Assembly: GCA_029960955.1 (NCBI GenBank)
Contig: JASBVS010000009.1
Span: forward strand, 22,645 to 86,644
Source of the DNA: Bacillota bacterium
GTDB taxonomy: Bacteria; Bacillota; Sulfobacillia; JAIMAT01
DNA: 64,000 nucleotides
Reading direction: 5' to 3'
A program made the translations under genes and the position numbers. Under the pieces are notes generated by a model. That model was not told the DNA's origin. It made no database searches and saw only the letters and a list, made by a program, of their open reading frames with translations. Below, one piece after another: positions 22,058-50,169 of this stretch. Position 1 is the stretch's first letter; the number at the start of each line of letters is the position of its first letter.

Positions 22058-22684
22058 TTACAGCAGCCCCCGCCGCACGCCCTCCATCACCGCCTCGACG
22101 CGCCCCCGCACCTTCAGCTTGCGGAAGAGCGCCAGCACCCGGTCCTTGACGGCGCTCTCGCTGAGGAAGAGGCGGGCGGCGATCTCGCGGTTGGTGGCGC
22201 CCTCGGCGATGAGGCGGAGCAGCTGGAGCTCCTCCGGGGTGATCTCTTCCTCGTGACGGCGCTCCTTGACCGTCTCCATGAGGAGAGCGGCCGCCTGCGG
22301 CGCCAGGGCGGCGTCCCCCCGCACCACCGCCCGCACGGCCCGGACCAGGTCGAAGCCTTCCACGTCCTTGAGCAGGTAGCCCCGCGCGCCCGCCTCGACG
22401 CACTCCCGCACCAGCGTGTCGCTGATGAAGCTGCTCAGGATGAGCACAGCGGTGCCGGGGCAGCGGTCGCGCATCTGGCGGCAGAGCTCGATGCCGCTCA
22501 TGCCGCCCAGGCGGATGTCGACCACGGCCACGTCCGGCCCGCTGCGCGCCGCCGCGGCCACCGCCTCCTCGGCGGAGCCCACCGCGCCGACCACCTCCAG
22601 GTCCCGCTCGGCAGCCAGCAGTGCGGAGACGCCCTGCCGCACGATCTCGTGGTCATCCACCACCAGCACCCGTATCCGTGGCAA
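22058..22684 (-). CDS. NarL/LuxR-family response regulator
   Basis: REC domain (VLVVDDHEIVRQG...DVAVVDIRLGGMSG, conserved D and K) plus a C-terminal LuxR HTH (LLRLIAEGATNREIAARLFLSESAVKDRV). The start overlaps the 3' end of the upstream kinase gene by 32 nt. Confidence 0.9.
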   Translation of the reverse strand: MPRIRVLVVDDHEIVRQGVSALLAAERDLEVVGAVGSAEEAVAAAARSGPDVAVVDIRLGGMSGIELCRQMRDRCPGTAVLILSSFISDTLVRECVEAGARGYLLKDVEGFDLVRAVRAVVRGDAALAPQAAALLMETVKERRHEEEITPEELQLLRLIAEGATNREIAARLFLSESAVKDRVLALFRKLKVRGRVEAVMEGVRRGLL

Positions 22685-23852
22685 CGCGGACCTCCCCCGG
22701 CGGGCACCGCCCGGGCTCCAGCGGCGCCCAGACGCGCAGCACGCAGCCGCCGTCGACGCCGGCGCGCAGCTCGGCGCCCCCTCCCAGCCGCCCGGCCAGC
22801 CGGCGGATACCGGCCAGGCCGAAGCGCTGTCCGCGGCCGGCCTGCCGCAGGGCGCCGGCGTCCGGGCCGACGCCGTCGTCCTGCACCGTCAGCCGGACGG
22901 ACGAGCCGTCGACGGCCAGGTTGACCACCGCCATGCGGGCGCGCGCGTGCTTGGCCACGTTGGTCAGCGCCTCCCGCGCCGCCCGGTGGATCAGCTCCCG
23001 CACCGGCGCGGTCACCCGGTGGACCGGACCCGTGACGATGAGGCCCACCTCGAAGCCGAATTGCGCCTTGAACTCCTCGGTGAGCGAGGTGAGGAGCTCG
23101 TAGAGGCCGGCTTCCTCCGGCAGGCCGCCCCGCTCGTGGAGCTCGGCGATGGCCGCGCGGACGGCGGCGGAGCCCCGGGAAGCGAGGGCTGCGATGGAGG
23201 CGAGCCGCTCCCGCTGGTCCTCGGGCAGCAGCTCGCGCAGGCGCTCGGCCTCGAGGCCGATGCGGAAGAAGATCTGCGCGACGGTGTCGTGGAGCTCCAT
23301 GGCCAGCCGCTGCCGCTCCCGCAAGACCGCCAGCTCCTCGGCCTGCTGGTAGAGGCGGGCGTTGTGGATGGCGACCGCCGCGTGCGCCGCGAAGGCCACC
23401 ATCAGTTCCTCGTCCTCGCGGCTGAAGGGGTGCCCGCCCGTCAGGTTGGCGACGAAGAGCGTGCCCAGGATCTGCTCCTGGAAGCGGAGCGGCACGCCCA
23501 GGAAGGGTCCCACCGGCGGGTGGCCCGGCGGCGTCCCCACCGCCAGCGGGTGGCTGGGGACGTCGTCCACACGGAGCGGGCAGCCGGTCTTGAGCGGCAG
23601 GTTGAAGAGCCCCGCCCCGGTGGGGTAGTGGGCGGGCGGCGTCTCCCAGCCGGAGACCCAGAAGCCGCCGTACCGGTCGGGCTCGTCCTCGTCGAGCACG
23701 AGCAGCCCGCTGATGTCGGCGCTGCAGAGGTCGCGGGCGCTGTCGACCACCGTCTGCAGAAGAACGCCCAGGTCGAGCTGCGAGGCGAGCAGCGAGCTCA
23801 TCTCGAGGAGGGTCGCGAGCCGGCGCGCCTTCGCCTCGGTGCCCATCCTCAC
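22653..23852 (-). CDS. Soluble GAF-domain sensor histidine kinase (HisKA_3 / NarX-DegS type)
   Basis: No transmembrane segments. N-terminal GAF, H-box ELHDTVAQIFF, HATPase_c motifs (EALTNVAKHA, VQDDGVG). The GTG at 23852 overlaps the stop of the upstream xdhC gene (GTGA). Confidence 0.85.
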   Translation of the reverse strand: MRMGTEAKARRLATLLEMSSLLASQLDLGVLLQTVVDSARDLCSADISGLLVLDEDEPDRYGGFWVSGWETPPAHYPTGAGLFNLPLKTGCPLRVDDVPSHPLAVGTPPGHPPVGPFLGVPLRFQEQILGTLFVANLTGGHPFSREDEELMVAFAAHAAVAIHNARLYQQAEELAVLRERQRLAMELHDTVAQIFFRIGLEAERLRELLPEDQRERLASIAALASRGSAAVRAAIAELHERGGLPEEAGLYELLTSLTEEFKAQFGFEVGLIVTGPVHRVTAPVRELIHRAAREALTNVAKHARARMAVVNLAVDGSSVRLTVQDDGVGPDAGALRQAGRGQRFGLAGIRRLAGRLGGGAELRAGVDGGCVLRVWAPLEPGRCPPGEVRVATDTGAGGG

Positions 23853-24952
23853 CGCCCCCCGAAGCCCGCCGCCCCGGCCCCGGAGCCGTCTCCGGCGGCC
23901 GCCGGCGGGGCGCCGCCGGGAAGATAGCGCTCCGGCTCCCGGAGGAAGCGCTGCCGGCAGGGCTCGCCGCAGAAGTAGAAGAGACCCCCTGCGTACTCGG
24001 CGCGCAGCGCCTGCGCGTCCACCTCCACCTGCATGCCGCAGACCGGGTCCTCGGCAACCGGCGGCGCCTGCCCGGGCTCGGCCTCCCGTCGCGGCGCGGC
24101 CCGCTCGGCCCGGCGCCGCTCCGCCACCAGCTCGGCCAGGATGGAGAGCGCGATCTCCTCCTGGGTGGCCGCGCCGATGTCGAGGCCGGCGGGGTTGCGG
24201 ATGCGAGCCAGCTGCGCTTCCTCCAGCCCCCAGCCCGCGAGCACCTCGCGGACGGCCCGGGCCCGCCGGCGGCTGGCCACGAGCCCCACGTAGCGCGCCT
24301 CCGTGCGCAGCGCCAGGGCCAGCGCCTCCTCGTCGCAGATGCCGGCCGAGGCGACCACCACGTAGGCGGGCCGGTCGCGGACCAGCTCCGGCAGCGCCTC
24401 GAGCCCCGGCGGCCGGCCGTCCCCCCGGGGGGCGGCGGGCGCGGCGGAGCCGGGCGCCTCCTGCGCCGGCTCGCCCCGCCCGGGGAGCGCCGCCACGTCG
24501 AAGCCCACCGTCTCGCCCATGCGGACGAGGGCGCGCGTCAGCGGCGTCTCGCCGACGACGACCAGCCGGGGCGGGGCCACCCGGGGCTCGATGAAGACCT
24601 CCATGGCGCCGCCGCTGGGGCAGGTGAGCGCCACGGCCGCCTCCTCCCCCTCCGCGACGCCGCTCTCCGCGGGGAGGGGCGTCGCTTCCTCGCGCGTCGC
24701 CAGCCGGAGAAGGCGCGGCCGGCCGGAGCGGATGGCCGCCAGCGCCTCGCGGCGGACCGCCGACTGGGAGCAGGCACCGCCCACCCAGCCGGTCATCCGC
24801 CCGTCGGCGGTGACCACCGCCCGGTCGCCCACGCGGGCGGAGACGGGGGCCCGGCGCGCGACCACCGTGGCCACGGCGTACGGTTCGCCGCGGGCCTCCA
24901 GCTCGTCGACGAGTCGGATCAGCTCCTCGCCGCCCAACGCCTGCCCGATCAA
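23849..24952 (-). CDS. XdhC/CoxI-family Mo-cofactor insertion chaperone fused to a C-terminal YHS (TRASH-like) metal-binding domain
   Basis: N-terminus MIGQALGGEELIRLVDELEARGEPYAVATVV (XdhC_CoxI) followed by an XdhC Rossmann-like region. The C-terminal 45 aa, DPVCGMQVEVDAQALRAEYAGGLFYFCGEPCRQRFLREPERY, match the YHS-domain consensus (DPVCGM..YYFCS..C). Confidence 0.8.
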   Translation of the reverse strand: MIGQALGGEELIRLVDELEARGEPYAVATVVARRAPVSARVGDRAVVTADGRMTGWVGGACSQSAVRREALAAIRSGRPRLLRLATREEATPLPAESGVAEGEEAAVALTCPSGGAMEVFIEPRVAPPRLVVVGETPLTRALVRMGETVGFDVAALPGRGEPAQEAPGSAAPAAPRGDGRPPGLEALPELVRDRPAYVVVASAGICDEEALALALRTEARYVGLVASRRRARAVREVLAGWGLEEAQLARIRNPAGLDIGAATQEEIALSILAELVAERRRAERAAPRREAEPGQAPPVAEDPVCGMQVEVDAQALRAEYAGGLFYFCGEPCRQRFLREPERYLPGGAPPAAAGDGSGAGAAGFGGR

Positions 24953-24959
24953 GGCCGGA

Positions 24960-25424
24960 TCACCCCGCCTCGCCCGCCGGCTCCGCCTCCAGCTCGCGCC
25001 GGATCGCGCCGAACATCTGCTCCACCACCTTGCGCGCCTGCCCCTCCAGGAGCCGCCCCCCCACGGTGGCCAGGGTGCCGCTCACCGAGGCTTCCGCCTG
25101 CCAGGCCACCTCCGTCTGCCCGTCCACGGGCGTCAGGCGGGCCGAGCTCCGGACCGTCAGGCCGCTTCCCAGGCCGCTCCCCTGGATGGAGATGCGGGCC
25201 TCGGCGTCGTCCTCCCCCGGCTCCAGGGCGACGTCCAGGCGGAGGCGCCCCCGCACCGGACCGACGCCCACCCGCACGTGGGCCGTGAAGTGGGCCTCGT
25301 CCGCCACCTCCAGCTCCTGCAGGTCGGGCAGGCAGCGACCCACCCGTTCCGGGGCGAGGAGGAAGGCGCGGACCTCCTCCCGGCGCCGGCGGATGCTCTC
25401 GCTCCCCTCGAAGCGCATGTTCAC
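24960..25424 (-). CDS. coxG: Carbon monoxide dehydrogenase subunit G (CoxG, SRPBCC fold)
   Basis: 154-aa SRPBCC/CoxG-family protein (MRFEGSESI...VGGRLLEGQARKVVEQMF), immediately downstream of coxL. Confidence 0.8.
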   Translation of the reverse strand: MNMRFEGSESIRRRREEVRAFLLAPERVGRCLPDLQELEVADEAHFTAHVRVGVGPVRGRLRLDVALEPGEDDAEARISIQGSGLGSGLTVRSSARLTPVDGQTEVAWQAEASVSGTLATVGGRLLEGQARKVVEQMFGAIRRELEAEPAGEAG

Positions 25425-25430
25425 CGCCGC

Positions 25431-27775
<2,345 letters not shown>

Positions 27776-27779
<4 letters not shown>

Positions 27780-28318
27780 GGGACCATCCCTCCCCTGGCC
27801 GCGCTGGCCGCGCCGGCCGCGCCCTGGCCCGCGGACACCGGCTCGGCCGCGCCGCGCATCGCCCGCGCCGCCTCCTGGATCGCCCTGACGATGTTCTGGT
27901 AGCCGGTGCAGCGGCAGAGGTTGCCGGAGATGGCGCGGCGGATCTCCTCCTCGCCCGGATCGGGCCGGCGCTCGAGGAGCGCCGCCCCGGTCATGAGCAT
28001 GCCGGGCGTGCAGTAGCCGCACTGCAGCCCGTGCTGCTCCCAGAAGGCCTGCTGCAGCGGGTGGAGCTCGCCCTCGCGCGCCAGCCCCTCCACGGTGGTG
28101 ACGGCATGCCCCTCGGCCTGGACGGCGAAGAGCGTGCACGACTTGACCGGGCGCCCGTCCAGGAGGACCGTGCAGGCGCCGCAGCTGGTCGTGTCGCAGC
28201 CCACGTGCGTCCCGGTCAGGCCCGCCTCCTCGCGGATGAAGTGGACGAGAAGCCTCCTGGGCTCCACGACGCCGGTATACGGCTGCCCGTTGATGGTCAG
28301 GGTCAGCTCCCGCTTCAC
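27776..28318 (-). CDS. coxS: CO dehydrogenase small (2Fe-2S) subunit
   Basis: GTG at 28318 ([16 protein letters not shown]) with a GGGGGAGG SD. Plant-type and second [2Fe-2S] cysteine motifs ([24 protein letters not shown]). Confidence 0.9.
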
Positions 28319-28341: not shown

Positions 28342-29214
28342 TCACGCAGCCAGGGCGCGCTCGGCCGCCCGGGCCAGCGCCCGGACGGTCAGGATCCGCA
28401 CCATGTCGCGCTTGTACGCCTCCGAGCCGCGCGTGTCGGCCACCGGCGAGGAAGCCGCCGCCGCCAGCTCCCCCGCCCTCTCCAGCACCTCCGGCTCGAA
28501 GCGCTTCCCCGCGAGGAACGCCTCCGCCTCGCGGGCGCGGAGCGAGGTGGGGCCGACGGCGCAGAGGCCGACGCCCGCGGCCGTGCACCTCCCATCGGCG
28601 TCGAAGGCGACCTGGACGCCCACGGCGGCGGTGGCGAAGTCGCCCACCTTCCGCTCGATCTTCAGGTAGGCGCCGCCGCTGCGCGGCGCGGGCGCCGGCA
28701 CCCGGATCTCGGTCAGGATCTCGTCGGGCGAGATGGCGGTGGTGAAGGTGTCGACCAGGAAGTCCTCCAGCGCAAGCTCCCGCTCGCCCCCCGGACCCGT
28801 CAGCACCACCCGCGCCCTGGCCGCCAGCAGCGCCGCCCCCCAGTCCCCCGCGGGGTCGGCGTGGACCAGGGAGCCGGCGACCGTCCCCAGGTTGCGGACC
28901 AGCGGGTCGGCGACCACGCTCGCCGTCTCCGCCAGGAGCGGGTAGCGGTCGCGGATGAGCGGCGAGGCCTCCATCTCCGCGTGGCGCACCAGCGGGCCGA
29001 TGCGCAGCACCCCTTCCTCCTCCGCCAGGAAGTCGAGCCCGGGGATCCGCTGGATGTCGACGAGCACCCCGGGCCGCGCCAGGCGGAAGCGCATGGCCGG
29101 GATCAGGCTCTGGCCTCCCGCGATCACCTTGGCCTCCTCGCCGTGGCGCCTCAGCAGCTCCACGGCCTCCGGAAGCGAGCCGGGCGCGGCATAATCGAAG
29201 GCGGCCGGGATCAC
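28342..29214 (-). CDS. coxM: CO dehydrogenase medium (FAD-binding) subunit
   Basis: GTG at 29214 ([21 protein letters not shown], the canonical CoxM start) with AGGAGGGAGGG upstream. FAD-binding domain AGGQSLIP. 290 aa. Confidence 0.85.
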
Positions 29215-29229
29215 ATGCCCTCCCTCCTC

Positions 29230-29353: not shown

Positions 29354-29887
29354 GTGGAGGAGGAGGCGGCCGGCCGGGGCGCGGCTCCGCTGCGCATCGC
29401 CGTGGCCGGCGGGCACGAGTGCACCCCGGAGGAGGCGGCCCTCGCCAGGCGGGCCGGCGAGCTCCTGGCCGAGGCGCGTGCCGTGGTGCTCTGCGGGGGT
29501 TACGGCGGCGTGATGGCGGCGGTGGCCGAGGGCGCGCGGTCGGCGGGCGGCCTCGTGGTCGGCCTGCTGGCGGGCGACTCCCTCGCGGGCGCGGCGCCCG
29601 ACCTGACCGTCGCCCTTCCCACCGGCCTGGGCGAGATGCGGAACGCCCTCCTGGTCCGCGCCGGCGACGCCCTCCTGGCCATCGGTGGCGGTTTCGGAAC
29701 GCTCTCCGAGATCGCCCTGGCGGTGCGGACGGGCAAGCCCGTGGTCGGGCTGGCCACCTGGGAGTTTCGCGACCCCCACGGCGGCCCGGACCCCGTCCTG
29801 CGCGCCAGCGGAGTGGAGGAGGCGGTGGCCGCGGTCCTGCGCCTGGCGGCGGCCGTGCGCGGGCCGGCGACGCCGCCCGGCGCCTAG
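29354..29887 (+). CDS. TIGR00725 / LOG-like Rossmann-fold nucleotide-binding protein
   Basis: IAVAGGHECTPEEAALARRAGELLAEARAVVLCGGYGGVMAAVAEGARSAGGLVVGLLAG matches the TIGR00725 pattern (v.GGs..GvMea...Ga...GG..iGi). Divergent from coxM. Confidence 0.65.
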   Translation: MEEEAAGRGAAPLRIAVAGGHECTPEEAALARRAGELLAEARAVVLCGGYGGVMAAVAEGARSAGGLVVGLLAGDSLAGAAPDLTVALPTGLGEMRNALLVRAGDALLAIGGGFGTLSEIALAVRTGKPVVGLATWEFRDPHGGPDPVLRASGVEEAVAAVLRLAAAVRGPATPPGA

Positions 29888-30903
29888 CCCTCCGCCGGCG
29901 CCGGCCCGGAGGAGGCGCGGACGACCAGCCGGGGCTCCAGCACCACGTGGCGGCTGGAGGGAGTCCTGCCGGCGATCCGGTCGATCAGCATCCGCGCCCC
30001 CTCGGCCCCCATGCGCCGCGGCCAGGCGGCGATGGTCGTCAGCGGCGGGCTGATCTGGGAGGCCAGCTCGATGTCGTTGAAGCCGACCAGCGAGACGTCC
30101 CCGGGCACGCGCAGGCCGGCCGCGTGGCAGGCGGAGAGCGCGCCCAGGGCGATCAGGTCGTTGGCGCAGAAGACCGCCGTCGGCCGCGGCCGGAGCGCGA
30201 GCAGCCGCTCCATCGCCCGGCGGCCGCTCGCCTGCTGGAACTGCGCCTCCACCACGTAGCCGTCCGCGAAGTCGAGGCCGAACTCCTGGAGGGCGAGCCG
30301 GTAGCCCTGCAGCCGCTCCAGGGCGGTGTTGGCGTAGAGCGGACCGGTGATGTGGGCGATCCTGCGGTGCCCCAGGCGCACGAGGTGCTCCACCGCCATG
30401 TAGGCGCCCTTCTGGCCGTCGACGATGACGTAGTGGTCCGCCTCCTCCTGCGTCCGGCGGTTGACCAGGACGAAGGGGACCTGCTTGCGGCGCAGCTCCT
30501 CGATCAGCCGGTCCTGGGTGAGAGCGGTGGCCAGCATCAGCCCGTCGACGCGGCTCTCCTCCAGCACCCGCAGGTAGGCCTGGGCGGTGCCCACGTCCTC
30601 GTGGGTGTTCATCAGCAACAGGAAGTACCCGTGCTGTTCGGCTTCCGCCTGGGCGCCGTCGATCACCTCGGCGAAGAAGGGGTTGGTGATGTCCGGCACC
30701 AGCACGCCAACGGTGAAGGTATGGCGCAGCCGCAGGCTCCGGGCGATGGCGTTGGGCGAGTAGCCCAGCTCGGCGGCCGCCTGGAGCACCCGCTGGCGCG
30801 TCTCGCTCCGCGCGGGCTTCCCCGCCAGGACCCTGGAGACCGTCGACGGATCGACCTGGGCGCGGGCCGCGACGTCGCGGACCGTCACCGGGCGCTTGGG
30901 CAT
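29884..30903 (-). CDS. LacI-family transcriptional regulator
   Basis: N-terminal HTH VTVRDVAARAQVDPSTVSRVLAG plus a periplasmic-binding-protein-like sugar-binding core. 339 aa. Confidence 0.9.
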   Translation of the reverse strand: MPKRPVTVRDVAARAQVDPSTVSRVLAGKPARSETRQRVLQAAAELGYSPNAIARSLRLRHTFTVGVLVPDITNPFFAEVIDGAQAEAEQHGYFLLLMNTHEDVGTAQAYLRVLEESRVDGLMLATALTQDRLIEELRRKQVPFVLVNRRTQEEADHYVIVDGQKGAYMAVEHLVRLGHRRIAHITGPLYANTALERLQGYRLALQEFGLDFADGYVVEAQFQQASGRRAMERLLALRPRPTAVFCANDLIALGALSACHAAGLRVPGDVSLVGFNDIELASQISPPLTTIAAWPRRMGAEGARMLIDRIAGRTPSSRHVVLEPRLVVRASSGPAPAEG

Positions 30904-40421: not shown

Positions 40422-41480
40422 TCAGGCGGCGTCCGGCCGGAGCAGGACGCGGATCGCCCCGTCGCGCCGCTGGACGAAGGTCTCCCAGGCCTCGGCGAAG
40501 CGCCGCAGCGGGAAGCGGTGGGTGACCAGGGGCGCCACGCGGACCCTGCCCGCCGCCATCAGCTCCAGCCCCCGCTCGGAGACGCCGCGCGGGTTGGCCA
40601 CCGAGCCCAGCACGTCCAGGTGGCCCCGCACGATGCGCGGCAGCTCCACGTCGAGCCGCGCGTCGCCGCCGGTCGCCCCCGCCAGCACCACGCGGCCGCC
40701 GCGGCGGACGACGCCGACGGCCAGGCTGGCCGCCTGGGCCGTGCCGGCGAACTCGACGGCGGCGTCCGCCCCGCGCCCGCCCAGCTCGCGCCGCACGGCC
40801 GCCTCGGGGTCGGCTTCCTGGCGGACGTCCACCACCGCGTCGGCGCCCAGCTCGAGGCCCTTGCGCAGCCGGTCGGGGCGCGTGCCCACCAGCACCACCC
40901 GGCCGGCGGTCAGCCGCGCCACCTGGAGGGCGATCAGGCCGATGGCGCCCGGCCCGACCACCGCCACCCGCTCGCCCGGGCGCAGCCCCGCCCGCTCCAC
41001 CGCCCAGAGGGCGACGCCCACGTTGTCCGTGAAGGCGCCCGCCTCGTCGTCGACGCCCTCCGGCAGCCGGTGGAGGCTCCGCTCCGGCACGGCGGCGTAC
41101 TCGGCCAGGCCGCCGGGGATGGTGAAGCCGATGTGGGCGTGCCCCCAGGCGGGATCGCCGTAGTGCTCGCACAGGTTGTAGAGCCCCTCGCGGCAGGGCG
41201 GGCACTGCCCGCAGCCCACGTGCACCTCCACCCCCACCCGGTCGCCGCGCCGGAAGCCGACCACCCCCGGTCCCGTCGCCTCCACCACCCCGGCCCACTC
41301 GTGGCCCGGAACATGGGGATAGCGGACGCCGGCGAAGCGCCCCTCCAGCACCTTCCGGTCGGTGGCGCAGACCATGCTGGCCGTCACGCGGACCAGCACC
41401 TCGCCCGCCCGCGGCTCCGGCACGGGCAGGTCGTCGCGCACCTCGAAGCGTCCCGGTTCGGGGATCCAGACCGCCAGCAC
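40422..41480 (-). CDS. Zn-dependent alcohol dehydrogenase (MDR family, threonine/sorbitol/butanediol-dehydrogenase-like)
   Basis: GHEWAGVV, structural Zn CGQCPPCREGLYNLC, Rossmann VVGPGAIG. Confidence 0.85.
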   Translation of the reverse strand: MLAVWIPEPGRFEVRDDLPVPEPRAGEVLVRVTASMVCATDRKVLEGRFAGVRYPHVPGHEWAGVVEATGPGVVGFRRGDRVGVEVHVGCGQCPPCREGLYNLCEHYGDPAWGHAHIGFTIPGGLAEYAAVPERSLHRLPEGVDDEAGAFTDNVGVALWAVERAGLRPGERVAVVGPGAIGLIALQVARLTAGRVVLVGTRPDRLRKGLELGADAVVDVRQEADPEAAVRRELGGRGADAAVEFAGTAQAASLAVGVVRRGGRVVLAGATGGDARLDVELPRIVRGHLDVLGSVANPRGVSERGLELMAAGRVRVAPLVTHRFPLRRFAEAWETFVQRRDGAIRVLLRPDAA

Positions 41481-41498
41481 GGGTCTCGCCTCGCTCCG

Positions 41499-42587
41499 TC
41501 AGGGGTGGACCAGCACCTTGAGCGCCCCGTCGACGCGCTCCTTGAAGGTCTCGTAGGCGCGCGCGAACTCCTCCAGCGGGAAGTGGTGGGTGATGAGGCT
41601 GGCGACGTCGATGCGGCGGGCGGCCATCAGCGGCAGGACGCGCTCCATGGTGTTCCGGTTGGCCCGCACCCCGCGCAGGTCGATCTCCTCGAGCACGATC
41701 TTCTGCATGGGCAGGGCCACGGCCTCGTGGGGCACGCCGGTGAAGACCACCCTTCCCCCCTTGCGGGTCATCTCCACCGCCTGCCGGATGGAGTCCGCCG
41801 TGCCCGCGCAATCGATGGCGACGTCGACGCCGCCGCCGCTCAGCCGGCGCACCTCCTGGACCGCATCGACCCGGCGGTGGTCGACGACCTTGTCGGCGAA
41901 GGGACGGGAGCGCTCGAGCCGATCGCCCGAGCCGGTGACCAGCACCTGGCCGGCCCCCATCGCCCGCGCGCTCTGGGCGACGAGGATGCCCATGGGGCCG
42001 GCCCCCACCACGGCCACGCGGTCACCCGGGCCGACCCCGCCGCGTTCCGCCGACCAGAGGGCGATGCTGGAGGCGTCCGCCAGCGCCCCCTCGTCGAGGT
42101 CGAGCCCCTCGGGCAGCGGGAAGACGCTCTTCACGGAGTGGACCACATACTCCGCGTAAGCGCCCTGGCTGTAGTGCCCGTACTGGCGGTGGCCCAGCTC
42201 GGGTCGCCCGTAGTTCTCGCAGAGGTTGTAGCGGCCCTCCCTGCACATGCGGCAGTAGCCGCAGCCCGCGTGCGAGGTGCCGGCCACCCGCTGCCCCGGC
42301 CGCCAGCCGAAGGCGGCCGCCAGCTCGCCCGCCGCCACCACCTCGCCCGACCACTCGTGGCCGGGGACGAACGGGTACTCCCGCGGCCACTGGCCGGGGT
42401 GGCGCCCCTCGATGATGTGGACGTCGGTGCCGCAGATGGCCACCGCGTGGACGCGGCAGAGCACCTCGTCCCTCCCGGGCCGGGGCACGGGCAGCTCGCC
42501 GACGTGGAAGCGCTGCGGCCCGTCCAGGATCAGGGCGCGCATCCTCTCCGGCAGTCCCGCCGTCTCCCGCTTCAGTGCCAGGCTCAT
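41499..42587 (-). CDS. Zn-dependent alcohol dehydrogenase (MDR family)
   Basis: GHEWSGEVV, CGYCRMCREGRYNLC, VVGAGPMG. The start may be the internal ATG at 42542 (MRALILDGP). Confidence 0.85.
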   Translation of the reverse strand: MSLALKRETAGLPERMRALILDGPQRFHVGELPVPRPGRDEVLCRVHAVAICGTDVHIIEGRHPGQWPREYPFVPGHEWSGEVVAAGELAAAFGWRPGQRVAGTSHAGCGYCRMCREGRYNLCENYGRPELGHRQYGHYSQGAYAEYVVHSVKSVFPLPEGLDLDEGALADASSIALWSAERGGVGPGDRVAVVGAGPMGILVAQSARAMGAGQVLVTGSGDRLERSRPFADKVVDHRRVDAVQEVRRLSGGGVDVAIDCAGTADSIRQAVEMTRKGGRVVFTGVPHEAVALPMQKIVLEEIDLRGVRANRNTMERVLPLMAARRIDVASLITHHFPLEEFARAYETFKERVDGALKVLVHP

Positions 42588-43736: not shown

Positions 43737-46097
43737 CTAGCCGCGCCGCGCGGCTTCCGCTTCGTGCGGGCCCGTGCCCGCGCCCTCCCCCGGCGCGCGG
43801 CCGGCCTCCTCCACCCAGGCGCGCACCCGCGCGGGGGTCATGGGGAGGCGCCGGACCACCACGCCCAGAGGCGCCAGCGCGTCCTCCACGGCGTTGGCCA
43901 GAGCAGCCAGCGCCGGGATGGTGCCGCCCTCGCCCGCCCCCTTGGCGCCCAGCGGGTTGAGGGGCGTGGGCGACTCGAGGTGGGAGATCTCCACCGGCGG
44001 CATCTCCTCGGTGGAAGGAAGCGCGTACTCCGCCAGCGTGCTGGTGAGGAGCTGTCCCTGCTCGTCGTAGACCAGCTCCTCCAGCAGCGCGCCGCTGAGG
44101 CCGTACATGACCCCGCCGCGGACCTGTCCCTCCACCAGCGGCGGGTGGATCATCCGCCCGCAGTCGTGTGCGACCACGTAGCGCAGGACACGGACGCCGC
44201 CGGTCTCCGGGTCCACCTCCACCACCGCCACGTGGGCGCCGTCGGCGAAGGTGGGGGCGCCGGGCGCGAAGGCGACGGTGGAGGCGAGGTCGACCAGCGC
44301 CCGGCCCCCTTCCTGCGCCTCGCCCGAGCGCAGGCGCCGCGCCAGTTCCGCCAGCGAGAGCCGCAGGCCCGGCACGCCGCGCACGCGGACGTCGCCCCCC
44401 TCCAGGAGCAGGTCTTCCTCCGCCACCTCCAGGAGGCGGCTGGCGGCCGCCAGGATGCGGCGGCGCAGCTCCACCGCCGCCTCGTGGACCGCGCTGCCGC
44501 CCATGGCCACTCCCCGGCTGCCGAAGGTGCCGATGCCGGCCGGCACCTGCGCGGTGTCGCTGGCGACCACGGTGACGCGCTCCGCATCGACGCCCAGCGC
44601 GTCGGCCGCCACCCGGGCGAAGGTGGTCTCGTGCCCCTGTCCCTGGGCCGGCGAGCCGCTGGCCACCACCACCCGCCCGCTGGGGTCGAGGCGGGCGGTG
44701 GCCGCCTCGAAGGGGCCGCCGCCGGTGTCCTCCACGTAGACGGCCACGCCGACGCCCAGCCAGCGGCCTTCCTGGCGCGCCCGCGCCTGCTCCGCGCGCC
44801 AGCCCGCCACGTCCGCCCTCTCCACCGCCTGGCGGAGCGCCGCCGGGTAGTCGCCCGAGTCGTAGACCACCCGGCCCGGACCGCCCCGGTAGGGGAGGCC
44901 GGTGGCGTAGGGCATCTCTTCGGGCCGGATCAGGTTCCGCTGGCGCAGCTCGACGGGGTCCATCCCCAGCCGCCGCGCCAGCCGGTCCATCATCCGCTCC
45001 ATGACGAAGTTCCCCTGCGGCCGGCCGGCGCCGCGGTAGGGCCCGATGGGCACCTTGTTGGTGAAGACCTCCAGCACGCGGCAGCGGTAGGCCGGCAGAT
45101 GATAGGGCCCCGGCATGGTGGTGGCGGTGACCAGCCCGATGGGGACGCGGGGCGGGAAGGCGCCCACGTCGCTGAGCAGCACGTCGTCCAGGGCGAGGAG
45201 CCGCCCGTCCCGGCGGGCCGCCAGGCGGACCCGGTGGATCTGCTCGCGCTCGTGGTTGGTGGAGAGGAAGTGCTCCCGGCGATCCTCCAGGAAGCGGACC
45301 GGCCTCCCCGTCTCCAGCGCGAGCCAGGCGGCCAGCAGGTCCTCGGGGTAGACGCCGTTCTTCACCCCGAAGCCGCCCCCCACGTCGGGCGTCACCACGC
45401 GCACCTGCCGCTCCTCCAGCCCCAGCGCCGCGGCCAGCGCCGCGCGCAGCTGGTGCGGCGCCTGGTGCGCCGCCCAGACGGTCAGCCCGCCGCCCGCCTC
45501 GGGCACCGCCAGGATCGCCCTGCCCTCCAGCGGCTGCGCCGTCGCCCGCCCGATGGCCAGCTCCTCCTCCACCACCACCTCGGCCTCGGCCAGGGCGGCC
45601 TCCACCTCGCCGTAGCCGACGGTCCGCTCCGAGCAGAGGTTGGAGGGGCGCGAGAGCAGCGCGGGCGGCGCCCCTTCCTCCAGCGCCCGCCGCGCGTCGC
45701 CCACCACGGGCAGCGGCTCGTACTCCACCTCCGCCTCCTCCAGCGCGTCCTCGGCCACGTAGCGGTCGCGGGCCAGCACCGCCGCCAGAGGCTGGCCCGC
45801 GTAGGCCACCTCCTCCACGGCCAGGGCGGGCTGGACCGTCGCCCGCTGGAGCGCCGGCGCCCGCCGCGCCAGGCGCCGCCCGTCCAGCGCCAGCGCCACC
45901 CCCGCCACGGCCTCGGCGCGCCCCAGATCCACCCGCCGCACCCGCGCGTGGGCGTACGGGCTGCGCAGCACCGCCAGCGCCAGCGTGCCGGGCACCTCCA
46001 GGTCGCCGACGAAGCGGCCGCGCCCCGTCAGCAGGCGCCGGTCCTCCCTGCGCGGCAGGCCGTCGCCCGACCCGGTCGCCTCCCGCTCGCTCCGCAT
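43737..46097 (-). CDS. Xanthine-dehydrogenase-family molybdopterin-binding large subunit (form-II CoxL-like) with no adjacent FeS or FAD subunits
   Basis: ATG at 46097 with a [14 protein letters not shown]-terminus RREDRRLLTGRGRFVGDL, Mo-binding loop PYRGAGR, GQGHETTFA and the C-terminal dimerisation region. 786 aa. The 1072-aa ORF-track version is over-extended. Confidence 0.85.
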   Translation of the reverse strand: MRSEREATGSGDGLPRREDRRLLTGRGRFVGDLEVPGTLALAVLRSPYAHARVRRVDLGRAEAVAGVALALDGRRLARRAPALQRATVQPALAVEEVAYAGQPLAAVLARDRYVAEDALEEAEVEYEPLPVVGDARRALEEGAPPALLSRPSNLCSERTVGYGEVEAALAEAEVVVEEELAIGRATAQPLEGRAILAVPEAGGGLTVWAAHQAPHQLRAALAAALGLEERQVRVVTPDVGGGFGVKNGVYPEDLLAAWLALETGRPVRFLEDRREHFLSTNHEREQIHRVRLAARRDGRLLALDDVLLSDVGAFPPRVPIGLVTATTMPGPYHLPAYRCRVLEVFTNKVPIGPYRGAGRPQGNFVMERMMDRLARRLGMDPVELRQRNLIRPEEMPYATGLPYRGGPGRVVYDSGDYPAALRQAVERADVAGWRAEQARARQEGRWLGVGVAVYVEDTGGGPFEAATARLDPSGRVVVASGSPAQGQGHETTFARVAADALGVDAERVTVVASDTAQVPAGIGTFGSRGVAMGGSAVHEAAVELRRRILAAASRLLEVAEEDLLLEGGDVRVRGVPGLRLSLAELARRLRSGEAQEGGRALVDLASTVAFAPGAPTFADGAHVAVVEVDPETGGVRVLRYVVAHDCGRMIHPPLVEGQVRGGVMYGLSGALLEELVYDEQGQLLTSTLAEYALPSTEEMPPVEISHLESPTPLNPLGAKGAGEGGTIPALAALANAVEDALAPLGVVVRRLPMTPARVRAWVEEAGRAPGEGAGTGPHEAEAARRG

Positions 46098-46209
46098 GCG
46101 CTCCCCTCCCCTGTCGCCTTCGCTTCGACTCGCCTTCCCGGCGGCCTCGTGGCCAGCCAATACCACGGCCGCCGCCCGCTCCCCTGCCGCCGGGCCGGCG
46201 GCGAAGGAG

Positions 46210-46223
46210 ATCGATTGCAGGCC
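46210..46223. promoter_or_regulatory. Second copy of the ATCGATTGC(A)GGCC motif, in the divergent promoter / TIR of the amidohydrolase-2 gene
   Basis: ATCGATTGCAGGCC, preceded by GAAGGAG. It lies 22-35 nt upstream of the ATG at 46245. Confidence 0.3.
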
Positions 46224-46244
46224 GCCGAAGGGGGCGCGGGAGGG

Positions 46245-47219
46245 ATGGGCTTGGTCGTCGACGTGCACGCCCACCACGTGCCTCCGGCGCTGCTGGAACG
46301 GGTGGCCGCGGGGGAGGTGGCCGCGGAGGTCGAGCTCCACCGCGCAGGAGAGGCGGTCCGGCTCCTCTTTCCGCGCTCGGCCACCCGCCCCTTCCCGCCG
46401 GCCATGACCGACCTGGAGGCGCGGCTGGCCCATATGGACGCCCTGGGGATCGACCTCCAGCTCCTCTCCTTCTGGGCGGAGGCCTACGGCTACGACCTGC
46501 CGCGCGAGGCGTCGCTCCGCTACCACGCCGCCGCCAACGAGGAGCTGGCGCGGGCGGCCGCCCGCCGCCCCGACCGCTTCCGCTGGATGGCCACGGTGCC
46601 GCTGCCCTGGGGCGAGGAGGCGGCGCGGGAGGCGGAGCGGGCTGCCGGGCTGGGCGCGGTGGGCGTCATGGTGGGCACGCAGGCCGACGGCCGCGAGCTG
46701 GACGCGCCGGAGCTGGCGCCCTTCTGGGACGCCGCCGAGGCCCTGCAGCTGCCGGTGATGATCCACCCGGCGCTGGGCCAGGCGCCGCGGCTGGGCCGCT
46801 ACTACCTGAACAACCTCCTGGGCAACCCTTTCGAGACGACCGTGGCGGCCTCCGCGCTGGTGCTGGGCGGGGTGCTGGAGCGCCACCGGCGGCTCCGCCT
46901 CCTCCTCGTCCACGGCGGCGGCTACTTCCTCCTGGCCAGCGGCCGCCTCGACCACGGCTGGCGGGTACGCGCCGAGACGCGCACCGTGGCCGAGCCGCCT
47001 TCGGCCTTCCTGGAGCGCTTCGCCTACGACACGATCCTCTACGACGACCGGCTGCTGGCGGCGCTGGCGGCGCGGGTGGGCAGCGGGCGGCTCCTCCTGG
47101 GCACCGACTACCCCTTCGACATGGAGCCGCCCGAGCCGGTCGCCCAGATCCGCCGCCTCTTCGGTCCGGCGGCGCGCCAGGTGCTGGAGGAGAACGCGAG
47201 GAAGCTCTTCCGCCTCTGA
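46245..47219 (+). CDS. Amidohydrolase-2 family protein (ACMSD-like metal-dependent hydrolase/decarboxylase)
   Basis: N-terminus MGLVVDVHAHHVPP (the metal-binding HxH of the PF04909 family) and the C-terminal GTDYPFD motif. Alternative in-frame TTG starts at 46215 (GAAGGAG SD 5 nt upstream) or 46251. It is the real C-terminal piece of a 3495-aa artefact ORF. Confidence 0.8.
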   Translation: MGLVVDVHAHHVPPALLERVAAGEVAAEVELHRAGEAVRLLFPRSATRPFPPAMTDLEARLAHMDALGIDLQLLSFWAEAYGYDLPREASLRYHAAANEELARAAARRPDRFRWMATVPLPWGEEAAREAERAAGLGAVGVMVGTQADGRELDAPELAPFWDAAEALQLPVMIHPALGQAPRLGRYYLNNLLGNPFETTVAASALVLGGVLERHRRLRLLLVHGGGYFLLASGRLDHGWRVRAETRTVAEPPSAFLERFAYDTILYDDRLLAALAARVGSGRLLLGTDYPFDMEPPEPVAQIRRLFGPAARQVLEENARKLFRL

Positions 47220-47262
47220 CCCCCGCCCCCGGGCGGCGGGACGGCGGCGCCCGGCATTCCCC

Positions 47263-48432: not shown

Positions 48433-49122
48433 TCACGCGTGCGGGACGCCGTACCTCGTCCGCAGGAGCGCGGCGCACCACTCGGTGTTGAAGGCGAGCG
48501 AGCTCTCCAGAACCCGCAGCCGCGACGGCCCGCCCTCGACGGCGGGGAAGAGCGGCTGCGCCGGGTCGTCGGGGAGTCCCAGCCGCGCGCGCAGCTCCAG
48601 GTAGCGCGCCAGCTCTCCGCGGGCGCCCGCCAGCGCGTGCAGCAGCGCCGGATCGGAGGCGTCGGCGAGGCGGAGCGAAGCCGCTTCCTGCTCGTCGAAA
48701 CCGGCGGCGGCGAGCGCGCGCAGGAGCGCCCCCCGGCGGCGGAGGAGGGCCTTGCGCAGGAAGAGCCGGCGCAGCTCCTCCAGGGAGCCCTCCGTCTCCC
48801 CGGGGAAGGCGGCGTCGAAGCCGCCGCCCGCCGCCAGCGCGCGGTTGATCTCCTCGGAGAAGGCGTGGTCGACCAGCTCCACCTCCACCCGCTCCACGCC
48901 CGGGAGGGGGCGCAGGGCTCCGACGACGTCGGAGGCCATGAGGAAGGCGAAGTTGGGCGCGCACCAGAAGGTGGGCAGGCGGAGGCGGATGCGGATCCGG
49001 CCGTCCTCCACCGCCGCTTCCTGGATGAAGCCGAGCTCGACGAGCGGTTCGTCGAGCTCGGGGTCGCGGACGGTCGCCAACGCCCGCCGGACCGCCTCCG
49101 CGTCGACCGTCGCCCGCGTCAC
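48433..49122 (-). CDS. DUF59 (MIP18/FeS-assembly-like) domain protein
   Basis: N-terminal VRRALATVRDPELDEPLVELGFI matches the DUF59 fold. The C-terminal half is uncharacterised. Confidence 0.55.
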   Translation of the reverse strand: MTRATVDAEAVRRALATVRDPELDEPLVELGFIQEAAVEDGRIRIRLRLPTFWCAPNFAFLMASDVVGALRPLPGVERVEVELVDHAFSEEINRALAAGGGFDAAFPGETEGSLEELRRLFLRKALLRRRGALLRALAAAGFDEQEAASLRLADASDPALLHALAGARGELARYLELRARLGLPDDPAQPLFPAVEGGPSRLRVLESSLAFNTEWCAALLRTRYGVPHA

Positions 49123-49125
49123 GGC

Positions 49126-50169
49126 CTACGCCTCCCCCTCCGCCCCGTCCGCGCCGCGCCTCCGGCCGGGGAGGGCGCTGCGCCCCGCGGCGAAGTCGAG
49201 GTCGTAGAGGCGGGCGGCATTCTGTCCCAGGATCTTCCTCTTGACGGCCAGATCGAGGGTGACGCCGGTCTCCTCGACGATCGCCTCGGGCAGCTGGAAG
49301 GCCATGAAGGCGTCGAGAATCCACCTCGGTTCCCAGATCGCGTAGTCCGAGGCGAAGAGCAGGCGGTCGGGCCCGAGCCAGAAGAGCAGCTCCGCCATCA
49401 CCCGGGCGAAGTAGAGCGGCCGGGCGCGGACGAAGGGCATGGCCACCGCCAGGCCGCCGTAGACGTTGGGCTCCTGGGTGGCGATCCAGCAGAAGTCCTC
49501 CAGTCGCGGCAGCCCGACGTGCTCCACGATGAAGTTGAGTTCGGGGAAGTCGCTGGCCGCATGGTCGACGTCGGCCACGTCGAAGGCATCGCGGTCGAGC
49601 GGCCAGATGGTCGGCCCCTTGTGAACGTGGATGTTGCGGATGCCGAGCTCCCGGCACTTCTCCAGGTAGCGGTAGGCCCACGCGTCGGTCAGCTTGTAGC
49701 CGCGCGAGCTGCCCCGCCACTCGGCGGTGTAGAGCTTGACGCCCCGGATGCCGTACCGCTCCTTCGCCGCCTCCAGCGCCTCCAGCCCCGCCTCGCCGTC
49801 GCGCGGGTCGAAGCTGCCGTTGAGGATGAAGCGATCCGGGTAGAGCTCCTTGATCACCGCGTTCCGCTCGACGGTGTTGAAGCCGCGGACGAAGAAGTCG
49901 CGCAGCCTGGTGGGCTGGAGGATCGCGACGTCGACGCAGCCCTCGGCGAAGAGGTCGCGCGCCATGGTCTCGGCGTCGTACTCGAGGAACTTCTCGCGCG
50001 GCCAGATGCGCTCGGCCGGGCTGAGGTTGCGGTGGTAGTCGTAGAAGCAGTCGATGAAACCCTTCCCGTACCTGTTGGCCTGGTTGGCGGGACTCGCGTC
50101 CCAGAAGTGGACGTGGCCGTCGACGACGAAGATCTCCTCACCCTCCGCGGTCCGGTACATGCTCTCCAC
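49126..50169 (-). CDS. Amidohydrolase-2 family protein (second copy)
   Basis: VVDGHVHFW (HxH), plus the conserved metal ligands HVHKG and DHAAS and the distal SDYAIWEP motif. ATG with a GGGGGGTGGAGAG SD. Confidence 0.8.
   Translation of the reverse strand: MESMYRTAEGEEIFVVDGHVHFWDASPANQANRYGKGFIDCFYDYHRNLSPAERIWPREKFLEYDAETMARDLFAEGCVDVAILQPTRLRDFFVRGFNTVERNAVIKELYPDRFILNGSFDPRDGEAGLEALEAAKERYGIRGVKLYTAEWRGSSRGYKLTDAWAYRYLEKCRELGIRNIHVHKGPTIWPLDRDAFDVADVDHAASDFPELNFIVEHVGLPRLEDFCWIATQEPNVYGGLAVAMPFVRARPLYFARVMAELLFWLGPDRLLFASDYAIWEPRWILDAFMAFQLPEAIVEETGVTLDLAVKRKILGQNAARLYDLDFAAGRSALPGRRRGADGAEGEA

Follow-up and report, generated by a model that had tools for sequence, protein, structure and literature searches.

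Aerobic carbon monoxide (CO) dehydrogenase supports the scavenging of atmospheric CO by soil and thermophilic bacteria. The sole model for the route by which copper reaches its buried [CuSMoO2] site derives from mutants of a single alphaproteobacterium, together with sequence motifs that are speculative. In Oligotropha carboxidovorans, the CO dehydrogenase made by coxE and coxF mutants has its full complement of Mo and sulfane sulfur and is devoid of Cu (PMC4240915). CoxF itself (280 aa) is an XdhC-family protein with an XdhC N-motif, a Rossmann domain and a suspected Cu site at M107-C-P-S-H-G-T-M (Pelzmann et al. 2014, PMC4240915). Proteins of the XdhC family have an established role in the binding, sulfuration and insertion of the molybdenum cofactor (Moco) (PMC2997495, PMC4240915), and within this family CoxF clusters with the XdhC homologues of other CO dehydrogenase operons and CoxI with PaoD (Neumann and Leimkuhler, PMC2997495). 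Here, we describe a 64 kb window (64,000 nucleotides; all positions refer to it unless a locus is named) of the 121 kb contig JASBVS010000009.1, which belongs to a metagenome-assembled genome (MAG) of a Bacillota bacterium. Directly after the genes coxMSLG, this window harbours a gene, here called coxF-YHS, that encodes an XdhC-family protein of the CoxF type with a C-terminal YHS (TRASH-type) domain. We propose, with a probability of about 0.6, that the product is a copper escort, i.e. that the tethered YHS domain captures Cu(I) and the CoxF core passes it on to apo-CoxL, which is already folded and sulfurated at its Mo site.

The architecture is already visible in databases, under the generic names ‘XdhC family protein’ and ‘YHS domain-containing protein’, and our literature search revealed nothing that links YHS/TRASH with XdhC, CoxF, CoxI, coxL or CO dehydrogenase. 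The window protein is a CoxF variant with a fused metal-binding domain.

Domain architecture and affiliation

Genes in the window were called on the basis of the GC content at third codon positions (GC3) and annotated with Pfam, which covered the region from ~0.4 to 63.9 kb. The coxF-YHS gene (23849..24952, minus strand) starts with TTG, ends with TGA and codes for a maturation factor of 367 aa. It follows the coxG stop codon after a gap of 7 nt and lies on the same strand as coxMSLG, which agrees with the location given in the preliminary description of this DNA. The open reading frame (ORF) is uninterrupted and has a GC3 of 0.94, which is of the coding type for this window with its overall GC content of 74 %.

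Three Pfam domains were detected, all above their thresholds, which confirms the earlier assignment as an XdhC/CoxI-type protein fused to a C-terminal YHS domain. The XdhC_CoxI N-terminal domain (PF02625; residues 20-83, 24704..24895, minus strand) scored 66 bits against a threshold of 24.3 and contains C61, the cysteine of the GGxC motif (codon 24770-24772, minus strand), which is invariant in alignment A1. It is followed by the XdhC_C Rossmann domain (PF13478; residues 130-275, 24128..24565, minus strand), with 99 bits against 29.7. The profile hidden Markov model comparison that had been suggested for the C-terminus gave a significant YHS match (PF04945; residues 301-345, 23918..24052, minus strand; 47 bits against 30.3, E 2.5e-12), covering profile positions 2-45 of 47. 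The ORF at 23849-24952, which lies on the minus strand, is real. The YHS peptide had been taken for the very end of the protein, and this does not quite hold: the peptide DPVCGMQVEV...REPERY corresponds to residues 302-343 and is followed by a 24-residue tail rich in Gly, Ala and Pro. Within this tail, residues 346-367 (23852..23917, minus strand) are predicted to be disordered and are absent from 23 aligned homologues, making the tail particular to the window protein. An identical protein is present in NCBI, where it is titled ‘XdhC family protein [Bacillota bacterium]’.

The affiliation of the XdhC part is clear at the level of sequence similarity. The window protein matches O. carboxidovorans CoxF with 34 % identity over CoxF residues 6-276 of 280 (E 4e-40, 133 bits) and scores 75 bits against CoxI of the same organism, the plasmid pHCG3 of which (L082) encodes both of these XdhC-family proteins. 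CoxF was likewise preferred over CoxI by the matching XdhC gene in all loci compared (85/85), with medians of 133 versus 48 bits and a smallest margin of 57 bits. Two NCBIfam equivalogs of the XdhC family remained far below their cutoffs, namely TIGR02964 (23.8 versus 161.6 bits), so that membership of the xanthine-dehydrogenase XdhC equivalog was rejected, and NF045664, the aldehyde oxidoreductase (AOR) maturation factor (116.3 versus 350). Residues 110-117 read TCPSGGAM, and Cys111 of this motif (24620..24622, minus strand) corresponds to the site in O. carboxidovorans CoxF at which Cu binding is suspected; in alignment A1, no sequence deviates at C111, S113 or G115, and P112 is conserved in at least 90 % of the sequences. 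Judged by sequence, the window protein is thus a CoxF homologue plus an added YHS domain. The preliminary description had counted CoxF among the factors missing from this cluster, which needs to be revised, since CoxF of O. carboxidovorans is itself an XdhC-family protein and the window protein, matching it end to end, is the CoxF homologue of the cluster.

A confident AlphaFold2 model, calculated from a 24-sequence alignment, reached a predicted local distance difference test (pLDDT) score of 84.8 and a predicted template modelling (pTM) score of 0.77. The YHS domain was modelled with pLDDT values of 88-95, the linker preceding it with lower ones and residues 356-367 of the tail with values below 50. 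The top fold matches in the PDB were the XdhC-like structures 2WE8 and 2WE7 (the Mycobacterium smegmatis homologue of Rv0376c) as well as 3ON5, all restricted to the XdhC core; for 2WE7/2WE8, Foldseek gave an E value of 5e-15, template modelling (TM) scores of 0.47-0.51 and 27 % identity. This fold search of the PDB yielded no experimental structure for a CoxF-type protein or an XdhC-YHS fusion.

Spread and genomic setting of the fusion

The enzyme encoded next to coxF-YHS is a form-I aerobic CO dehydrogenase. Its large subunit gene coxL (25431..27803, minus strand) scored 1252 bits with TIGR02416 against a cutoff of 991, the genes are arranged in the order M-S-L and the active-site loop reads VAYRCSFR, containing the form-I motif AYRCSFR (general pattern AYXCSFR). 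The cysteine of this loop is the copper ligand in form-I CoxL (PMC4240915), and the window CoxL is 59 % identical to that of O. carboxidovorans.

In a collection of 5.8 billion proteins, all of the best 120 hits showed the XdhC_CoxI, XdhC_C and YHS architecture (41-57 % identity), and relatives were found in at least 563 reference genomes when one genome per GTDB species was scanned. We compared the genomic setting in 80 loci, i.e. the best-scoring relatives of our query, which itself comes from a form-I cluster. They include Actinomycetota (Streptomyces, Arthrobacter, Actinomycetospora), Chloroflexota (Thermogemmatispora carboxidivorans, Ktedonobacteraceae, Anaerolineales), Deinococcota, Acidobacteriota, Myxococcota, Dormibacterota, Vulcanimicrobiota, Halobacteria and Thermoplasmata. 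According to a motif scan, there is at most one YHS-bearing ORF per locus.

Counted over the 64 loci with at least 2.5 kb of upstream sequence, a form-I coxL (Y-x-CSFR) is located directly upstream on the same strand in 53 and within 10 kb in 61, so the association with form-I coxL is near-exclusive. The three loci without a form-I coxL belong to two Myxococcota and one member of the Acidimicrobiaceae. The earlier idea of a metal module, probably for Cu, serving the Mo-Cu site would have been refuted by a fusion occurring mostly next to Mo hydroxylases lacking Cu; the overwhelming presence of form-I CoxL next to it speaks, as far as gene neighbourhood can tell, in favour of this idea. Independently chosen samples, based on CoxL similarity and on metagenomes, agree on the form-I setting, and the fusion is present in cultured CO oxidisers, i.e. 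T. carboxidivorans (L020) and Thermomicrobium roseum, on the megaplasmid of which (L083) it lies directly after coxL. Further arrangements are coxMSL, XdhC-YHS, MoxR, VWA, DUF364 and CoxI in Natronorubrum, and coxMSL, XdhC-YHS and a mocA-like gene in Thermoflexus.

The form-I CoxL of two loci (L088, 5113-7467; L089, 5466-7817) carries SYRCSFR and is missed by the strict pattern AY.CSFR; for the 80 loci, the pattern Y.CSFR gave the same counts as AY.CSFR. The XdhC-YHS gene of two myxococcotal loci (L014, L015) adjoins a divergently oriented, form-II-like Mo hydroxylase (AYRGAGR), and only these two come into question as a setting without form I. The first of them also contains coxD and coxE homologues, and coxM and coxS follow the fusion before the contig ends.

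Outside the sampled Proteobacteria, most CoxF homologues carry the YHS domain, i.e. those of Actinomycetota, Chloroflexota, Deinococcota, Acidobacteriota, Myxococcota, haloarchaea and Thermoplasmata.

The YHS domain and its putative metal

The candidate ligands of the YHS domain are D302 (24047-24049), C305 (24038-24040), C328 (23969-23971) and C332 (23957-23959), with the cysteines spaced C-X22-C-X3-C. The TRASH spacing is reportedly C-X19-22-C-X3-C, as described by Ettema and colleagues in 2003. The set of one Asp and three Cys is conserved in 82/83 loci, while the residue after C328 varies between C, G, A, S and N.

A C-terminal YHS domain provides the adenylyl cyclase of Mycobacterium phlei with a specific response to micromolar Cu, and one Asp and three Cys have been proposed as its ligands (Linder 2015, PMC4626032). 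In addition, we searched with the YHS segment alone using HMMER and obtained 6399 representatives; since the summed scores of proteins with several YHS domains dominate this ranking, it was used for co-occurring domains only. Among the 149 best matches scanned, the YHS domain was accompanied by HMBD, CusB/HlyD, P-type ATPase, ATPase-cat_bd, NosL and HMA domains, all of which belong to the trafficking of copper and other heavy metals. Together with the Cu-responsive cyclase, this company points to a thiophilic metal, and by analogy the metal bound by the YHS domain is most plausibly Cu(I).

Many of the best matches to the YHS segment are proteins consisting of two to six YHS repeats, and a CoxF homologue from Myxococcales (P0049) carries two YHS domains in tandem (alignment A1, columns 380-446).

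A proposed copper escort or a possible molybdenum cofactor chaperone

For a CoxF-type copper escort, we infer the following sequence of events. The YHS domain, carried by a flexible linker (residues ~285-300), would bind Cu(I) drawn from the cytoplasmic pool or supplied by a donor and hand it to the CoxF core, in which C111 of the CPSGG motif and C61 are candidate ligands. The core would then dock on folded, Moco-containing and sulfurated apo-CoxL and deliver Cu(I) to the Mo-SH/Cys site, i.e. to the Cys of AYRCSFR. Copper as the metal, its transfer in this direction and the docking on CoxL are proposals, while the architecture, the CoxF-type affiliation, the form-I setting, the conserved ligand set and the usual company of CoxD and CoxE are observed. 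In this model, coxF-YHS is co-transcribed with coxMSLG and with the genes of a GAF-kinase/LuxR-regulator pair.

The explanation that competes best, which we consider possible at clearly lower probability, is that the protein acts as a conventional XdhC-type Moco chaperone, binding and protecting sulfurated Moco in its molybdopterin cytosine dinucleotide (MCD) form and inserting it into CoxL, with a YHS domain that, rather than donating copper, forms a structural Zn ribbon, mediates docking or senses copper and thereby gates the activity of the chaperone. This would be the established role of the family (PMC2997495, PMC4240915), and coxF-YHS is the single XdhC-family gene in the window. The apparent equivalent in the Thermogemmatispora operon coxMSLIG has been labelled ‘coxI’ (PMC6776052), and the one biochemically studied YHS domain that we found in the literature is a sensor, not a donor (PMC4626032). 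On the other hand, the protein resembles CoxF, and not CoxI or PaoD, at every locus, and coxF mutants of O. carboxidovorans keep Mo and MCD while lacking Cu (PMC4240915). Moreover, the CoxI-like paralogues that were checked in the same clusters carry no YHS domain, and the fusion tracks the Cu-containing form-I enzyme.

Several points weigh against the copper escort. First, the cysteines of the core are shared with XdhC sequences other than CoxF: a cysteine at the position equivalent to C111 is found in LTCGG of 2WE7 and in LPCGS of CoxI (the latter aligned by eye), and C61 is likewise present in both, so C111 may serve Moco handling rather than Cu. Second, the Cys3 site of YHS/TRASH domains could instead hold a structural Zn or another thiophilic metal. 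Third, the proteobacterial CoxFs and the actinobacterial CoxF of Nonomuraea (L086) have no YHS domain; for the former, this follows from a tblastn search of plasmids with the fusion protein (3 records), in which the matches end at residue 276. The CoxF encoded on a plasmid of Deinococcus sp. AJ005 (L084, 12586-13647) has a degenerate YHS domain, SPVDGEEI...YYFTCANC, which lost the Asp and the first Cys and kept two Cys, showing that a YHS domain can be retained although its metal site has decayed. The domain thus appears dispensable in some lineages. Fourth, rarer contexts may be under-sampled, since the 80 loci were selected by their score against a query from a form-I cluster. Finally, the mechanism published for CoxF, comprising phytase activity and an RGD-integrin contact, is itself speculative.

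CoxD, CoxE and a compact cluster subtype

No CoxD (MoxR-type AAA+) or CoxE (VWA_CoxE) was found in the 64 kb window by tblastn with 12 CoxD/CoxE queries, all matches having E > 0.2, and no mocA was detected in its Pfam-scanned region. The preliminary description had suggested that the fusion could functionally replace the missing CoxD, CoxE and CoxF, and a self-sufficient copper-insertion device of this kind in the present organism would have to be weighed as a further explanation. We judge it improbable, for reasons that start with the CoxF identity of the protein itself.

The co-occurrence of CoxD and CoxE with the fusion was counted in the 42 loci with at least 8 kb of sequence on both sides. 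Both are usually present near the fusion (35/42), frequently as the next genes in the series MSL-F(YHS)-D-E. One example is L002, the CoxL of which is 82 % identical to that of the window, with coxG, XdhC-YHS, coxD and coxE. In another (L088, 52 % identity), coxMSLG and XdhC-YHS are followed by mocA, coxD, coxE and coxI and then by the same kinase/regulator pair as in the window. Since CoxD and CoxE lie beside the fusion in most loci and show no complementary distribution, the YHS domain is not their general replacement, and the suggested substitution was not borne out. The full series in L088 points to an origin of the window cluster by loss or relocation of mocA-coxD-coxE-coxI, i.e. to a reduced version of such a series.

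The gene mocA is indispensable for the synthesis of the MCD cofactor. As it is nevertheless missing from the scanned region, a gene that the cluster lacks may still be present in the genome, so coxD and coxE may lie elsewhere as well. The evidence covers 64 kb of a 121 kb MAG contig. In T. roseum, a separate accessory operon including coxE is located elsewhere in the genome (PMC6776052). Relocation is therefore the more economical reading.

Nevertheless, the compact arrangement is not confined to the window. The closest homologue (L087, 57 % identity) lies in the order coxG, XdhC-YHS, GAF-kinase, regulator and LacI, and pairs homologous to the kinase and regulator of the window (22058-23852, minus strand) flank the cox clusters of T. 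roseum (L083, 3775-5660), Thermogemmatispora (L020, 3789-5733), a Ktedonobacteraceae MAG (L010, 869-2820), L051 (4152-5914), L087 (1989-3777) and L088 (12990-14784). Within 10 kb on both sides, coxD and coxE were not found nearby in L020 and L051, nor were they nearby in T. roseum; the downstream sequence of L010 is limited to 2.5 kb. The layout of coxMSL(G), coxF-YHS and a GAF-kinase/LuxR-regulator pair without nearby coxD/E, as seen in L087, the T. roseum megaplasmid, Thermogemmatispora, the Ktedonobacteraceae MAG and L051, is thus a recurrent subtype.

In favour of a replacement within this subtype, Thermogemmatispora sp. T81 oxidises CO, and its structural and accessory factors have been described as one operon, coxMSLIG (PMC6776052), the ‘coxI’ of which is apparently equivalent to the fusion gene. 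If CoxF-YHS were the sole dedicated active-site maturation factor of the compact subtype, with the YHS domain making the copper route via CoxD (AAA+) and CoxE (VWA) unnecessary, a minimal set of five genes would be sufficient for an active Mo-Cu CO dehydrogenase. In view of the points above, this is doubtful. That the fusion is an artefact, in which misassembly, a frameshift or faulty ORF calling joined an XdhC gene to a separate small YHS gene, can be rejected. The fusion is encoded by one ORF without interruption, the coding GC3 of which is uniform, an identical protein was called independently on a Logan contig, and the architecture is conserved, being the same in the best 120 database hits and in 80 genomes of many phyla.

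Other genes of the window

Between coxF-YHS and coxL, coxG (24960..25424, minus strand) encodes a protein of the SRPBCC/COXG family (PF06240, 106 bits). The [2Fe-2S] subunit is encoded by coxS (27776..28282, minus strand; Fer2_2, 119 bits) and the FAD subunit by coxM (28342..29220, minus strand; FAD_binding_5 and CO_deh_flav_C). A gene for a LacI-family regulator (29884..30903, minus strand; Pfam) lies upstream of coxM, and between the two, on the opposite strand, there is an SLOG/LOG-like (LDcluster4) gene (29354-29887, plus strand).

On the other side of coxF-YHS, Pfam identified a GAF-HisKA_3 sensor kinase (22653..23852, minus strand) and its partner, a LuxR/GerE-type response regulator (22058..22684, minus strand). 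The start codon of the kinase gene overlaps the stop codon of coxF-YHS (GTGA). The pair is thereby translationally coupled to coxF-YHS and represents a candidate dedicated cox regulator, a role for which no description was found in the literature covered.

The remaining genes of the window belong to ordinary metabolism according to Pfam, and no copper genes were found in the Pfam-scanned part. A second Mo-hydroxylase large subunit gene (~43737-46100, minus strand) has a form-II-like loop, PYRGAGR, and neither a small or medium subunit gene nor an XdhC gene was detected beside it. Its stop-to-stop ORF extends to 47561, but Pfam matched nothing in the initial ~487 codons, which appear to be non-coding in this frame, so that ~46100-47260 is without an assigned gene. 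FeS_assembly_P, Amidohydro_2 and Zn-ADH genes are located in its vicinity (48439-50169 and 40431-42575, both minus strand). The same trio is found directly upstream of coxM in the Thermoflexus contig (L089, 951-3906), i.e. it is a recurring neighbourhood.

Comparison with known systems

The presence of an Asp/Cys3 domain on most non-proteobacterial CoxF homologues provides independent support, in the style of a ‘Rosetta stone’ fusion, for CoxF as a copper escort. The YHS domain is a small, soluble and easily mutated handle on this idea and makes the question of copper delivery directly testable. The enzyme has been difficult to produce in active form by heterologous expression, and information on the accessory genes that are really required is of practical value.

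Among the described proteins, CoxF of O. (Afipia) carboxidovorans OM5 (pHCG3, WP_013913733) is the closest counterpart, as it combines XdhC_CoxI and Rossmann domains, has the GGxC and C-P-S-x-G motifs, is encoded in a form-I cluster and is tied genetically to copper insertion. In contrast to the window protein, it carries no YHS domain and ends in the ‘phytase-like’ motif RHGQRQS. The gene order differs as well: in O. carboxidovorans, coxF follows coxD and coxE (MSL-D-E-F-G), whereas the fusion gene usually follows coxL or coxG immediately and precedes coxD/E, and the window cluster has no coxD/E.

CoxI, PaoD of Escherichia coli and XdhC of Rhodobacter capsulatus share the two-domain XdhC fold, the conserved cysteines and the database name ‘XdhC family protein’ with the window protein. 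Unlike the fusion, the CoxI-like paralogues checked in related clusters (L085, L088) lack a YHS domain. The M. smegmatis protein of 2WE7/2WE8 is a more distant relative with a duplicated N-domain and without YHS.

With regard to the added domain, the YHS of the M. phlei cyclase is alike in its length of ~45 residues, its one Asp and three Cys and its C-terminal position on a short linker. In the cyclase and in P1B-ATPases, however, YHS/TRASH domains are sensors or transporter appendages, while here the domain is attached to a cofactor-assembly chaperone, in which the role of a donor would be more natural than that of a sensor or an appendage.

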